Below, one piece after another: positions 1 to 63,685 of a stretch of DNA of 64,000 nucleotides (positions are counted from its first letter, which is position 1; every line of letters begins with the position of its first letter). The DNA lies in NCBI GenBank assembly GCA_964016885.1, contig CAXHJY010001327.1, forward strand, positions 62,001-126,000. Reading direction: 5' to 3'. The notes beneath the pieces were generated by a model. The model had not been told where the DNA came from, ran no database searches, and saw only the letters and a list, made by a program, of their open reading frames with translations. Source of the DNA: Eledone cirrhosa. Its lineage: Eukaryota. Both the position numbers and the translations under genes were made by a program.

Positions 1-406
1 AAAATAGTATTATAATACTGTGGAACTTTGGTGAACCTATTTGGTTAACCAAACTTAATAAAATACTATTTATAATACTGTGGAACTTTGGTTAACCTCA
101 CTTAATAAAATAGCAACATAAAACTGTGGAATTTGGTTAACCTAACTTAATAAAATACCAATATAATACTGTGGAACTTTTGTTAACCTAACTTAATAAA
201 ATACTATTATAATACTGTGGAACTTTTGTTAACCTAACTTAATAAAATACTATTATAATACTGTGGAACTTTTGTTAACCTAACTTAATAAAATACTATT
301 ATAATACTGTGGAACTTTTGTTAACCTAACTTAATAAAATACTATTATAATACTGTGGAAGTTTGGTTAACCAAACTTAATAAAATACCATTATAATACT
401 GTGGAA

Positions 407-576
407 CCACAGTATTATAATGGTATTTTATTAAGTTAGGTTAATCAAAGCTCCAGAGTATTATAATTGTTTCCACTTTTGGCACAAGGCCATCAATTAC
501 CCAGTACATTACTGATAAAATAAAGTACAAGTAATGTACTGAGTATTTGATGGCCTTGTGCCAAAAGTGGAAACAA
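407..576. repeat. Fold-back/palindrome cassette copy 1 (subtype A): 60-bp inverted satellite 407-466 plus 110-bp palindromic core 467-576
   Basis: GTGG-AA-CCAC turn. Core left arm TTGTTTCCACTTTTGGCACAAGGCCATCAATTACCCAGTACATTACT (467-513) pairs with 530-576 with 2 mismatches. Subtype marker AAAGCTCCAGAG. Confidence 0.97.
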
Positions 577-1789
577 TTATAATACTGTGGAACTCTGGTT
601 AACCTAACTTAATAAAATACTATTATAATACTGTGGAACTTTGGTTAACCTAACTAAATAAAATACTATTATAATACTGTGGAACTTTGGTTAACCTAAC
701 TTAATAAAATACCATTATAATACTGTGGCACTTTGGTTAACCTAACTTAATAAAATACTATTATAATACTGTGGAACTTTGGTTAACCTAACTTAATAAA
801 ATACTATAATAATACTGTGGAACTTTGGTTAACCTAACTTAATAAAATACCATTATAATACTGTGGCACTTTGGTTAATCTAACTTAATAAAATACTATT
901 ATAATACTGTGGAACTTTGGTTAACCTAACTTAATAAAATACTATTATAATGCTGTGGAACTTTCGTTAACCTATCTTAATAAAATACCAATATAATACT
1001 GCGGAACATTGGTTAACCTAACTTAATAAAATATTATTATAATACTGTGGAACTTTGGTTAACCTAACTTAATAAAATACTAATATAATACTGCGGAACA
1101 ATGGTTAACCTAACTTAATAAAATACGAATATAATACTGCGGAACTTTGGTTAACCTAACTTAATAAAATATTAATATAATACTGCGGAACATTGGTTAA
1201 CCTAACTTAATAAAATACCAATATAACACTGCGGAACTTTGGTTAACCTAACTTAATAAAATACTAATATAATACTGCGGAACATTGGTTGATGTAACTT
1301 AATAAAATACTATTTATAATACTGTGGGACCTTGTTTAACCTAACTTAATAAAATACTATTATAATACTGTGTAACTTTGGTTAACCTAACTTAATAAAA
1401 TACCAATATAATACTGTGCAACCTTGGTTAACCTAACTTAATAAAATACTATTATAATACTGTGGAACTTTGGTTAACCTAACTTAATAAAATACTATTA
1501 TAATACTGTGGAACTTTGGTTAACCTAACTTAATAAAATATCAATATAATACTGTGGAATGTTGGTTAACCTAACTTAATAAAATACTATTATAATACTG
1601 TGGAACTTTGGTTAACCGAACTTAATAAAATACTATTATAATACTGTGGAACTTTTGTTAACCTAACTTAATAAAATACTATTATAATACTGTGGAACAT
1701 TGGTTAACCTAACTTAATAAAATACTATTATAATACTGTGGAAGTTTGGTTAACCAAACTTCATAAAATACCATTATAATACTGTGAAA

Positions 1790-3474: not shown

Positions 3475-3644
3475 CCACAGTATTATAATGGTATTTTATT
3501 AAGTTAGGTTAATCAAAGCTCCAGAGTATTATAATTGTTTCCACTTTTGGCACAAGGCCATCAATTACCCAGTATATTACTGATAAAATAAAGTACAAGT
3601 AATGTACTGAGTATTTGATGGCCTTGTGCCAAAAGTGGAAACAA
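3475..3644. repeat. Cassette copy 3 (subtype A)
   Basis: Same structure. AAAGCTCCAGAG marker and private CAGTATATT change. Confidence 0.96.
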
Positions 3645-4812: not shown

Positions 4813-4982
4813 CCACAGTATTATAATGGTATTTTATTAAGTTAGGTTAATGAAAGTTCCACAGTATTATAATTGTTTCCACTTTTGGCACAAGGCCATC
4901 AATTACCCAGTACATTACTGATAAAATAAAGTACAAGTAATGTACTGAGTATTTGATGGCCTTGTGCCAAAAGTGGAAACAA
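4813..4982. repeat. Cassette copy 4 (subtype B)
   Basis: GTGAAACCAC and TAATGAAAG markers. Confidence 0.96.
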
Positions 4983-8508: not shown

Positions 8509-8678
8509 CCACAGTATTATAATGGTATTTTATTAAGTTAGGTTAATCAAAGCTCCAGAGTATTATAATTGTTTCCACTTTTGGCACAAGGCCATCAATT
8601 ACCCAGTACATTACTGATAAAATAAAGTACAAGTAATGTACTGAGTATTTGATGGCCTTGTGCCAAAAGTGGAAACAA
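8509..8678. repeat. Cassette copy 5 (subtype A)
   Basis: AAAGCTCCAGAG marker. Confidence 0.96.
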
Positions 8679-10917: not shown

Positions 10918-11087
10918 CCACAGTATTATAATGATATTTTATTAAGTTAAGTTAATCAAAGTTCCACAGTATTATAATTGTTTCCACTTTTGGCACAAGG
11001 CCATCAATTACCCAGTACATTACTGATAAAATAAAGTACAAGTAATGTACTGAGTATTTGATGGCCTTGTGCCAAAAGTGGAAACAA
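10918..11087. repeat. Cassette copy 6 (subtype C)
   Basis: ATGATATTTTATTAAGTTAAGTT marker in the inverted arm. Confidence 0.96.
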
Positions 11088-11380: not shown

Positions 11381-11550
11381 CCACAGTATTATAATGATAT
11401 TTTATTAAGTTAAGTTAATCAAAGTTCCACAGTATTATAATTGTTTCCACTTTTTGCACAAGGCCATCAATTACCCAGTACATTACTGATAAAATAAAGT
11501 ACAAGTAATGTACTGAGTATTTGATGGCCTTGTGCCAAAAGTGGAAACAA
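11381..11550. repeat. Cassette copy 7 (subtype C)
   Basis: Same marker as copy 6, 463 bp downstream of it. Confidence 0.96.
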
Positions 11551-13317: not shown

Positions 13318-13487
13318 CCACAGTATTATAATGGTATTTTATTAAGTTAGGTTAATCAAAGCTCCAGAGTATTATAATTGTTTCCACTTTTGGCACAAGG
13401 CCATCAATTACCCAGTACATTACTGATAAAATAAAGTACAAGTAATGTACGGAGTATTTGATGGCCTTGTGCCAAAAGTGGAAACAA
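13318..13487. repeat. Cassette copy 8 (subtype A)
   Basis: AAAGCTCCAGAG marker and private GTACGGAG change. Confidence 0.96.
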
Positions 13488-14700: not shown

Positions 14701-14870
14701 CCACAGTATTATAATGGTATTTTATTAAGTTAGGTTAATGAAAGTTCCACAGTATTATAATTGTTTCCACTTTTGGCACAAGGCCATCAATTACCCAGTA
14801 CATTACTGATAAAATAAAGTACAAGTAATGTACTGAGTATTTGATGGCCTTGTGCCAAAAGTGGAAACAA
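14701..14870. repeat. Cassette copy 9 (subtype B)
   Basis: GTGAAACCAC and TAATGAAAG markers. Confidence 0.96.
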
Positions 14871-17157: not shown

Positions 17158-17327
17158 CCACAGTATTATAATGGTATTTTATTAAGTTAGGTTAATGAAA
17201 GTTCCACAGTATTATAATTGTTTCCACTTTTGGCACAAGGCCATCAATTACCCAGTACATTACTGATAAAATAAAGTACAAGTAATGTACTGAGTATTTG
17301 ATGGCCTTGTGCCAAAAGTGGAAACAA
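17158..17327. repeat. Cassette copy 10 (subtype B)
   Basis: GTGAAACCAC and TAATGAAAG markers. Confidence 0.96.
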
Positions 17328-19336: not shown

Positions 19337-19506
19337 CCACAGTATTATAATGGTATTTTATTAAGTTAGGTTAATCAAAGCTCCAGAGTATTATAATTGT
19401 TTCCACTTTTGGCACAAGGCCATCAATTACCCAGTACATTACTGATAAAATAAAGTACAAGTAATGTACTGAGTATTTGATGGCCTTGTGCCAAAAGTGG
19501 AAACAA
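19337..19506. repeat. Cassette copy 11 (subtype A)
   Basis: AAAGCTCCAGAG marker. Confidence 0.96.
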
Positions 19507-20719: not shown

Positions 20720-20889
20720 CCACAGTATTATAATGGTATTTTATTAAGTTAGGTTAATGAAAGTTCCACAGTATTATAATTGTTTCCACTTTTGGCACAA
20801 GGCCATCAATTACCCAGTACATTACTGATAAAATAAAGTACAAGTAATGTACTGAGTATTTGATGGCCTTATGCCAAAAGTGGAAACAA
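20720..20889. repeat. Cassette copy 12 (subtype B)
   Basis: GTGAAACCAC and TAATGAAAG markers, with private CCTTATGCC change. Confidence 0.96.
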
Positions 20890-37297: not shown

Positions 37298-37467
37298 CCA
37301 CAGTATTATAATGGTATTTTATTAAGTTAGGTTAATCAAAGTTCCACAGTATTATAATTGTTTCCACTTTTGGCACAAGGCCATCAATTACCCAATACAT
37401 TACTGATAAAATAAAGTACAAGTAATGTACTGAGTATTTGATGGCCTTCTGCCAAAAGTGGAAACAA
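37298..37467. repeat. Cassette copy 13 (subtype D)
   Basis: GGCCTTCTGCC and CCCAATAC markers. Confidence 0.96.
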
Positions 37468-37815: not shown

Positions 37816-37984
37816 CCACAGTATTATAATGGTATTTTATTAAGTTAGGTTAACCAAAGTTCCACAGTATTATAATTATTTCCACTTTTGGCACAAGGCC
37901 ATCAATTACCCAGTACATTACTGATAAAATAAAGTACCAGTAATGTACTGATAATTGATGGCCTTGTGCCAAAAGTGGAAACAA
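37816..37984. repeat. Cassette copy 14 (subtype E, 1-bp deletion)
   Basis: GCGGAACCAC turn, TTATTTCC core start, GTACCAGTAATGTACTGATAATTG. Confidence 0.96.
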
Positions 37985-38951: not shown

Positions 38952-39121
38952 CCACAGTATTATAATGGTATTTTATTAAGTTAGGTTAATCAAAGTTCCA
39001 CAGTATTATAATTGTTTCCACTTTTGGCACAAGGCCATCAATTACCCAGTACATTACTGATAAAATAAAGTACAAGTAATGTACTGAGTATTTGATGGCC
39101 TTCTGCCAAAAGTGGAAACAA
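38952..39121. repeat. Cassette copy 15 (subtype D-like)
   Basis: GGCCTTCTGCC marker, but retains CCCAGTAC. Confidence 0.96.
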
Positions 39122-39930: not shown

Positions 39931-40100
39931 CCACAGTATTATAATGGTATTTTATTAAGTTAGGTTAACCAAAGTTCCACATTATTATAATTATTTCCAC
40001 TTTTGGCACAAAGCCATCAATTACCCAGTACATTACTGATAAAATAAAGTACCAGTAATGTACTGACTAATTGATGGCCTTGTGCCAAAAGTGGAAACAA
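39931..40100. repeat. Cassette copy 16 (subtype F)
   Basis: CCACATTATT, CAAAGCC and CTGACTAATTG markers, followed by CTGTTGAAC. Confidence 0.96.
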
Positions 40101-43730: not shown

Positions 43731-43900
43731 CCACAGTATTATAATGGTATTTTATTAAGTTAGGTTAACCAAAGTTCCACATTATTATAATTATTTCCAC
43801 TTTTGGCACAAAGCCATCAATTACCCAGTACATTACTGATAAAATAAAGTACCAGTAATGTACTGACTAATTGATGGCCTTGTGCCAAAAGTGGAAACAA
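43731..43900. repeat. Cassette copy 17 (subtype F)
   Basis: Subtype F markers. Confidence 0.96.
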
Positions 43901-48231: not shown

Positions 48232-48401
48232 CCACAGTATTATTATGGTATTTTATTAAGTTAGGTTAATCAAAGTTCCACAGTATTATAATTGTTTCCA
48301 CTTTTGGCACAAGGCCATCAATTACCCAATACATTACTGATAAAATAAAGTACAAGTAATGTACTGAGTATTTGATGGCCTTCTGCCAAAAGTGGAAACA
48401 A
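48232..48401. repeat. Cassette copy 18 (subtype D)
   Basis: GGCCTTCTGCC and CCCAATAC markers. Confidence 0.96.
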
Positions 48402-48749: not shown

Positions 48750-48919
48750 CCACAGTATTATAATGGTATTTTATTAAGTTAGGTTAACCAAAGTTCCACA
48801 GTATTATAATTATTTCCACTTTTGGCACAAGGCCATCAATTACCCAGTACATTACTGATAAAATAAAGTACCAGTAATGTACTGACTAATTGATGGCCTT
48901 GTGCCAAAAGTGGAAACAA
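48750..48919. repeat. Cassette copy 19 (subtype E)
   Basis: GCGGAACCAC turn and GTACCAGTAATGTACTGACTAATTG. Confidence 0.96.
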
Positions 48920-49765: not shown

Positions 49766-49935
49766 CCACAGTATTATAATGGTATTTTATTAAGTTAGGT
49801 TAACCAAAGTTTCACATTATTATAATTATTTCCACTTTTGGCACAAAGCCATCAATTACCCAGTACATTACTGATAAAATAAAGTACCAGTAATGTACTG
49901 ACTAATTGATGGCCTTGTGCCAAAAGTGGAAACAA
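49766..49935. repeat. Cassette copy 20 (subtype F)
   Basis: Subtype F markers. Confidence 0.96.
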
Positions 49936-52128: not shown

Positions 52129-52298
52129 CCACAGTATTATAATGGTATTTTATTAAGTTAGGTTAACCAAAGTTCCACATTATTATAATTATTTCCACTT
52201 TTGGAACAAAGCCATCAATTACCCAGTACATTACTGATAAAATAAAGTACCAGTAATGTACTGACTAATTGATGGCCTTGTGCCAAAAGTGGAAACAA
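52129..52298. repeat. Cassette copy 21 (subtype F)
   Basis: Subtype F markers plus TTGGAACAAAGCC. Confidence 0.96.
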
Positions 52299-56949: not shown

Positions 56950-57119
56950 CCACAGTATTATAATGGTATTTTATTAAGTTAGGTTAACCAAAGTTCCACA
57001 TTATTATAATTATTTCCACTTTTGGCACAAAGCCATCAATTACCCAGTACATTACTGATAAAATAAAGTACCAGTAATGTACTGACTAATTGATGGCCTT
57101 GTGCCAAAAGTGGAAACAA
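56950..57119. repeat. Cassette copy 22 (subtype F)
   Basis: Subtype F markers. Confidence 0.96.
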
Positions 57120-59326: not shown

Positions 59327-59496
59327 CCACAGTATTATAATGGTATTTTATTAAGTTAGGTTAACCAAAGTTCCACATTATTATAATTATTTCCACTTTT
59401 GGAACAAAGCCATCAATTACCCAGTACATTACTGATAAAATAAAGTACCAGTAATGTACTGACTAATTGATGGCCTTGTGCCAAAAGTGGAAACAA
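59327..59496. repeat. Cassette copy 23 (subtype F)
   Basis: Subtype F markers plus TTGGAACAAAGCC, shared with copy 21. Confidence 0.96.
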
Positions 59497-63515: not shown

Positions 63516-63685
63516 CCACAGTATTATAATGGTATTTTATTAAGTTAGGTTAATCAAAGTTCCACAGTATTATAATTGTTTCCACTTTTGGCACAAGGCC
63601 ATCAATTACCCAATACATTACTGATAAAATAAAGTACAAGTAATGTACTGAGTATTTGATGGCCTTCTGCCAAAAGTGGAAACAA
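63516..63685. repeat. Cassette copy 24 (subtype D)
   Basis: GGCCTTCTGCC and CCCAATAC markers. Confidence 0.96.

Follow-up and report, generated by a model that had tools for sequence, protein, structure and literature searches.

A 46-bp satellite fills a 64,000-nt stretch of the 3.0-Gb Eledone cirrhosa genome (positions 1-64000, plus strand; G000:C1354:62001-126000, hereafter the window), and at 24 places the same 170-nt cassette, twice folded back on itself, interrupts it. Where does such a cassette come from, and does it have a role? An earlier note, made from the letters of the window alone, offered two answers, a selected structural element or a single fossil rearrangement carried along by amplification of the array.

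The satellite belongs to a single 121-kb array (G000:C1354:50,946-172,050) bordered by ordinary repeat-rich flanks. Since all exact genome matches to a monomer 35-mer (553/553) fall in this array, all on the plus strand, the satellite is one locus in this assembly. A 15.4-kb block occurs twice in the cassette-free part with 99.98% identity (C1354:133,030-148,407 and 151,692-167,069) and is either a very recent duplication or an assembly duplication. Two long reading frames lie in the flanking DNA: an uninterrupted one of 970 codons with a short terminal inverted copy (C1354:17,478-20,390; L040, L041), presumably Penelope-like and with a C-terminal GIY-YIG motif, and an open one of 989 codons with a (GAT)n tail (C1354:10,001-12,970; L040), which we take to be RTE-like. 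The 46-bp monomer may also occur in a relative, as a 76-nt contig of organism B (run X4) matches window positions 601-676 with one difference.

All 24 cores were located in the window, every one on the plus strand with starts from 467 to 63576, directly preceded by a 60-nt inverted satellite piece and followed by satellite that resumes at the identical monomer position. Besides the first copy, dissected below, plus-strand cassettes lie at 1790-1959, 3475-3644, 4813-4982, 8509-8678, 10918-11087, 11381-11550, 13318-13487, 14701-14870, 17158-17327, 19337-19506 and 20720-20889; after 16.4 kb free of cassettes they continue at 37298-37467, 37816-37984 (with a 1-nt deletion in the right arm, at 37876), 38952-39121, 39931-40100, 43731-43900, 48232-48401, 48750-48919, 49766-49935, 52129-52298, 56950-57119, 59327-59496 and 63516-63685. 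The outer turn, given in the note as one fixed junction, is indeed constant in position (24/24), whereas its wording varies (GTGGAACCAC in 17 of 24 copies, GTGAAACCAC in five and GCGGAACCAC in two). Window positions 400-640 form a single hairpin whose loop is 16 nt long (-98 kcal/mol, z -26.9), and none of 200 shuffles was equally stable. The 110-bp non-satellite palindrome that the note placed at the centre exists, but its foreign part measures 108 nt (468-575) and is SINE-derived. Non-satellite runs of at least 15 nt number 24 in the window, each of them a core, and 36 across the array, of which 35 are cores and the other is a full-length SINE that lies beyond the window. The 35 array copies have fixed junctions and a single orientation. 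The net insert, in which an 18-nt target-site duplication is counted once, comes to 186 nt; 34 units show this gain and the remaining one 185 nt. This insert (window 390-575) equals four monomers plus 2 nt, nearly keeping the 46-bp phase, a single case with a chance of about 1 in 10.

An assembly artefact is not supported. Short-read contigs from two runs (X1 and X2) of one sample, possibly the source of the DNA, span the inner junction of the cassette, and junction words and monomer words reach similar depths per assembled copy (12.6-15.5 against 9.5-10.4 in X1; 6.0-7.5 against 6.4-7.0 in X2). Among the short-read contigs listed for these runs, none spanned the outer turn by 31 nt on both sides. 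Runs X4 and X5 gave no match to the cassette at 98%, which is no proof of absence. SINE reads swamped a first pass of read matching, and the RAD runs X7 and X8 barely cover the satellite.

What, then, is the core? The note had not recognised it as any described element and proposed a comparison with the source genome. This comparison places it in an abundant repeat family that also occurs outside the array, a tRNA-type SINE whose contribution the note had missed. The core matches five chromosomal places (5/40 scored candidates), and one of these adjoins a complete SINE, the 3′ part of which corresponds to the loop and right arm. The SINE is ~185 nt long, its 3′ end precedes ATTAT in 19 of 21 readable copies, and a 33-mer from it has at least 109,432 exact genome matches. 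A 185-nt copy carries an A-box-like motif at position 10 and a B-box-like motif at 73, scored with consensus sequences that we take to be those of Pol III promoter boxes. Among 55 unselected copies that reach the 3′ end, 25 are full length and the others are truncated along the body; direct repeats accompany many of 25 ordinary copies. A and B boxes, dispersed high copy number, a common 3′ end and variable 5′ truncation with duplications are, at the level of sequence, the marks by which the source of the core is assigned to the tRNA-derived SINEs. Rfam returned no match for it, neither to a tRNA nor to a hammerhead. Compared by description only, it resembles the tRNA-derived SINEs of molluscs, which include octopus OK, OR1 and OR2 (PMC4824008, PMC4758252), in its tRNA-type head, length of about 185 nt, short-repeat tail, variable duplications and very high copy number. 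The literature passages on SINEs that were consulted gave no support for membership of the MetaSINEs.

With the SINE identified, the first cassette copy can be read from left to right. The left copy of the 18-nt target-site duplication (390-407, plus strand) ends at the outer turn and has 1 nt in common with an inverted copy of 61 nt of target DNA (407-467, minus strand), which mirrors 576-636. The last 46 nt of the SINE follow in inverted orientation (468-513, minus strand), and then, in sense orientation, the last 62 nt of a 5′-truncated SINE (514-575, plus strand), in which 514-529 form the unpaired 16-nt loop. A tail hairpin with a 4-bp stem and a CTTGT loop (551-563, plus strand) lies 12 nt before the SINE end, and the right copy of the duplication (576-593, plus strand) starts with the ATTAT target motif. 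The direct repeat around the insert had escaped the earlier note. Both arms, the inverted copy included, have the two variants that define a minor SINE subfamily (139 matches, 31 inside the array and ~108 dispersed). Ten of ten subfamily copies fetched from outside the array are ordinary SINEs, eight of them near full length and two truncated. An origin from two independent head-to-head SINEs is rejected because both arms share this minor subfamily.

In all probability, the cassette goes back to one insertion of a 5′-truncated SINE with an 18-nt duplication, which likely primed its own fold-back and was then likely multiplied passively with the array. Directly visible are the truncation, the inverted duplication of the SINE end, its continuation into target DNA and the duplication at the outer junction. 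A LINE enzyme, probably L1/Tx1-like, would have nicked a monomer at ATTAT and reverse-transcribed SINE RNA from its 3′ end, with copying that would have stopped after the 62 nt seen in the cassette. The 3′ end of the cDNA could then have paired weakly with a stretch lying 16 nt back in the cDNA and started DNA-templated synthesis, in which first the SINE tail (46 nt) and then the target strand joined to it (61 nt) would have been copied. Joining of the fold-back end to the other target end with a 1-nt overlap would have left the duplication. Spread with the array would account for the 35 same-orientation copies, which lie in duplicated multi-monomer blocks and vary along with their flanks. Features of a snap-back are present in the cassette itself: an antisense copy of the element stands at the 5′ junction, with the two diagnostic variants in both arms, and the duplication ends where the arm ends, which points to formation during insertion. 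As the target is periodic, the 61-nt piece is not assignable to the downstream flank by its sequence, and each of the two consensus sequences, upstream and downstream, has one variant in common with it.

Fold-backs of the same SINE are also found outside the array. Head-to-head arm patterns occur genome-wide at 157 loci with gaps of up to 30 nt and at 123 with gaps of 31-60 nt, array copies accounting for 29 and 0 of these; the dispersed remainder (128 + 123 = 251) is a lower bound and corresponds to ~0.2% of the SINE family count. The 62 loci studied comprise the first 50 of those listed with gaps of up to 30 nt and 12 with the junction of the window (L031 was dropped because it failed the pattern). 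Among them are 28 different loop strings, the junction type of the window being present in seven of the first 50 listed, and arm lengths run from 11 to more than 200 nt. The arm ends within the SINE at 24 loci, near its end at 14 and within the locus's own downstream flank (25-218 nt) at 24, so that at these last a DNA template is indicated by a copy that enters the target. Twenty of the 24 are without simple-repeat flanks, and the cross-locus control for own-flank arms gave 21/2,196, mostly from four simple-repeat loci that belong to the 24. This stricter scoring replaced an initial laxer flank test (29/62, control 25/174). With 15 simple-repeat loci excluded from the 62, a 14-21-nt duplication at the arm end was seen in 18 of 47 loci (control 11/2,162), as expected of formation during insertion. 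Since it is absent in the other 29, some dispersed loci may go back to later rearrangement or to a loss of target DNA. The two arms of a locus resemble each other: in 29 loci (40 with full arms minus 11 with indels) they have 23 variants in common, against a shuffled mean of 8.0 and a maximum of 17 in 5,000. Five loci in unique DNA (L084, L086, L088, L140 and L141) read as duplication, inverted own 3′ flank, inverted tail, SINE end and duplication; the loop of L086 is that of the window, with about 60 nt of flank copied. The sequence duplicated at L074 is present once in an uninterrupted CR1 3′ UTR. Exact overlap at the inner junctions of the 62 loci is only 0-3 nt, which is weak for priming. 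Because their junctions differ and their arms reach into their own downstream flanks, the dispersed fold-backs are likely independent insertion accidents (cDNA snap-back) and not a mobile palindrome. L054, L090 and L203 are more complex SINE insertions with pieces repeated or internally inverted, which suggests several template switches.

Could the inverted arm have been copied from RNA instead? Two priming events on SINE RNA, either as twin priming or by extension of both cut ends from the 3′ end, might have made it, with the 61-nt piece arising as a separate fold-back of upstream target and with passive amplification thereafter. The target motif is palindromic and either strand could prime; L1 upstream-target inverted duplications and twin-priming duplications are both described in published passages (PMC10191854, PMC12350158), and the 38 of 62 dispersed loci that have no long flank copy are compatible with RNA priming. 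In unique DNA, however, it is the downstream flank that is found inverted, and it adjoins the inverted tail without a break; DNA-templated snap-back is favoured over twin priming because RNA cannot template a downstream flank. The inverted part also departs from L1 twin priming in that it fully overlaps the sense part and includes target DNA, and two rare events would be required where one is enough. An RNA-primed arm is thus unlikely. It is more improbable still that an ordinary SINE inserted here and was later converted into an inverted duplication by a replication or break-repair fold-back. Small microhomology inverted duplications are indeed reported as common in germline DNA, in the portions of that work consulted (PMC12350158), and absence of the arm-end duplication from 29 of 47 dispersed loci agrees with such a history, but the end of the cassette arm coincides exactly with that of the 18-nt duplication, as is also the case at 18 of 47 loci (control 0.5%). 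Later rearrangement is disfavoured on this ground, and it would need a deletion of exactly the 5′ part of the SINE and no flank.

Palindromic cores with an identical loop on several chromosomes might also bring to mind a MITE or other self-propagating palindromic element. Such an element should have fixed ends and length, a fixed short duplication and a single palindromic master, and the reading is refuted on each: junctions vary (28 loop strings at 62 loci, with the window type at seven of the first 50 listed), arms span 11 to more than 200 nt and duplications 14-21 nt, and an arm resembles its partner at the locus rather than arms elsewhere. Its probability is close to nil.

Self-primed fold-back of a truncated SINE is the likely origin, but might selection since have kept the product as a cruciform, protein-loading or recombination site? 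The hairpin is very stable as a single strand, there are 35 copies, the net length is close to four monomers, and a full-length SINE of the same family (L037; C1354:51,978-52,162) stayed single in the same array. That SINE lies on the minus strand, opposite to the cassettes, in the same palindromic monomer target and with a 17-nt duplication; its position near the array edge, however, weakens the comparison. The divergence of core and adjacent monomers, which the note had proposed to compare, is passenger-like. Across the 35 copies, the core has 21 variant alleles at 110 sites, the inverted piece nine at 60 sites (p=0.70 against the core) and the first 42 nt downstream eight at 42 (p=1.0). Variation is higher than in the core over the 62 nt that precede the turn (24 at 62 sites, p=0.02, two copies being dropped for indels in this comparison), as expected if forward monomers exchange with others. 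Decay of the arms is asymmetric: at 26 of 27 variable arm positions no copy is changed on both sides, and at the other a single copy is symmetric. Copies that are further apart in the core are also further apart in the flanks (rho 0.33 and 0.40; 0/1,000 permutations), cassettes are carried in blocks of 1.3-2.8 kb that are more than 99.5% identical, and other chance marks in the array are present in 2-52 copies each. Cassettes are spaced at 463-16,578 nt in the window, 49% of the array is free of them and the satellite is confined to one locus in the assembly; conservation above the flanks, regular spacing and presence across chromosomes, as expected of a functional (centromeric) satellite, were not found. 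Maintenance by selection is accordingly judged most improbable. Of the two answers in the note, a selected structural element finds no support in a core that shows no extra conservation and arms that decay asymmetrically, whereas a single fossil rearrangement carried by array amplification agrees with a core that comes from an abundant repeat family and varies as much as adjacent DNA. From its variation and placement, the cassette looks like a fossil accident and a passenger, not a functional site, and no function is needed to explain it. Transposon insertions can spread through satellite arrays by unequal exchange. The cassette is like them in being one insertion, in one orientation, with copies within duplicated blocks; unlike them, the passenger here is a 230-bp hairpin.

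Which LINE might have served the SINE? The tail of an L1/Tx1-like LINE (L219-L248, L218; 2,165 exact matches) carries a hairpin whose loop is that of the SINE but whose stem differs, 12 nt ahead of an ATT tail; the 13-nt hairpin, its spacing and the ATT tail are common to both elements, which have no extended identity. The reverse transcriptase of a related LINE copy has human L1 ORF2p as its best match, and the LINE family carries zf-RVT. These tail features are suggestive of the L1/Tx1-like LINE as a candidate partner or helper. Palindromes of its own tail are rare, with one found against 2,165 tail matches. This palindrome (L249, G000:C14:24,339,692-24,339,783) is placed after more LINE 3′ UTR and is possibly a fold-back within the LINE itself. 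Other candidates were rejected by their tails, which differ from that of the SINE: the best 30 reverse transcriptase loci, all of one family that we take from its motifs to be CR1-like, and the RTE-like and Penelope-like copies near the array. A search for the SINE tail behind foreign upstream bases gave 59 pattern matches, of which 30 were inspected and proved to be SINEs, variant or truncated.

Related structures have been described in other systems. Snap-back 5′ junctions are known from R2-mediated (PRINT) insertions, where, in the passages available, the 3′ end of the cDNA primes on cDNA or nearby target before the 5′ junction forms and antisense element is joined to upstream target (PMC11371274). 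Those insertions used engineered templates, the R2 protein, rDNA and cultured human cells (PMC11371274), whereas the fold-backs described here are natural germline SINEs with 14-21-nt duplications and arms that traverse the entire tail and extend as far as 218 nt into the target downstream. Penelope-like elements have inverted 5′-truncated copies (PMC8557442, PMC3846280), and the excerpts consulted describe an inverted element end at the 5′ side and a target-site duplication, with self-priming as the proposed route. In contrast, the present element is a tRNA-type SINE without a pseudo-LTR or an Rfam hammerhead, and the structure is rare (~0.2% of copies) and not the rule; no similarity was found between the SINE and the one Penelope-like element examined. 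L1 foldback inverted duplications lie upstream of the target and make up 0.3% of somatic L1 events in the relevant passages (PMC10191854; bioRxiv 10.1101/2024.12.14.628481). L1 twin priming and foldback resemble the present loci in an inversion or inverted duplication formed during insertion, a retained duplication, 1-2-nt microhomology and lengths of 52-220 bp (PMC10191854; bioRxiv 10.1101/2024.12.14.628481; PMC12350158). As far as those passages go, L1 duplicates upstream DNA or inverts another part of the RNA, whereas the duplicated parts here are the 3′ end of the element itself and its downstream flank. In a search of open-access full text, no description of natural SINE snap-backs with a copied downstream flank turned up, and the portions consulted of PMC11702581, PMC11167929, PMC12350158, PMC4824008, PMC5786205, PMC4758252 and PMC13282606 describe no fold-back SINE series. 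The type of accident behind the cassette is known; its natural setting is new.

As a feature of the satellite, the cassette matters little, except as a marker from which past duplications of one array can be read. For repeat annotators it holds a caution, since palindromes of fold-back SINEs can be mistaken for MITEs. Its wider interest lies in second-strand and 5′-junction synthesis of non-LTR insertions, which is an open question and for which published snap-backs come from engineered R2 insertions. The fold-back SINEs, as a natural series in which junction registers and arm lengths can be counted, offer a target for in vitro and reporter tests of LINE enzyme against host polymerases. It is conceivable, though we hold the idea tentatively and at somewhat less than even chances, that self-primed fold-back is a regular completion route for L1/Tx1-driven insertions in this germ line, in which a polymerase reads through the junction into the target. 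If so, at least 250 fossils would map where cDNA synthesis stopped, where it re-primed and how far it reached. Each fossil would be an almost perfect hairpin with arms of at most about 260 bp, unique host DNA included, and such hairpins, when transcribed, could feed RNA editing or small-RNA pathways.
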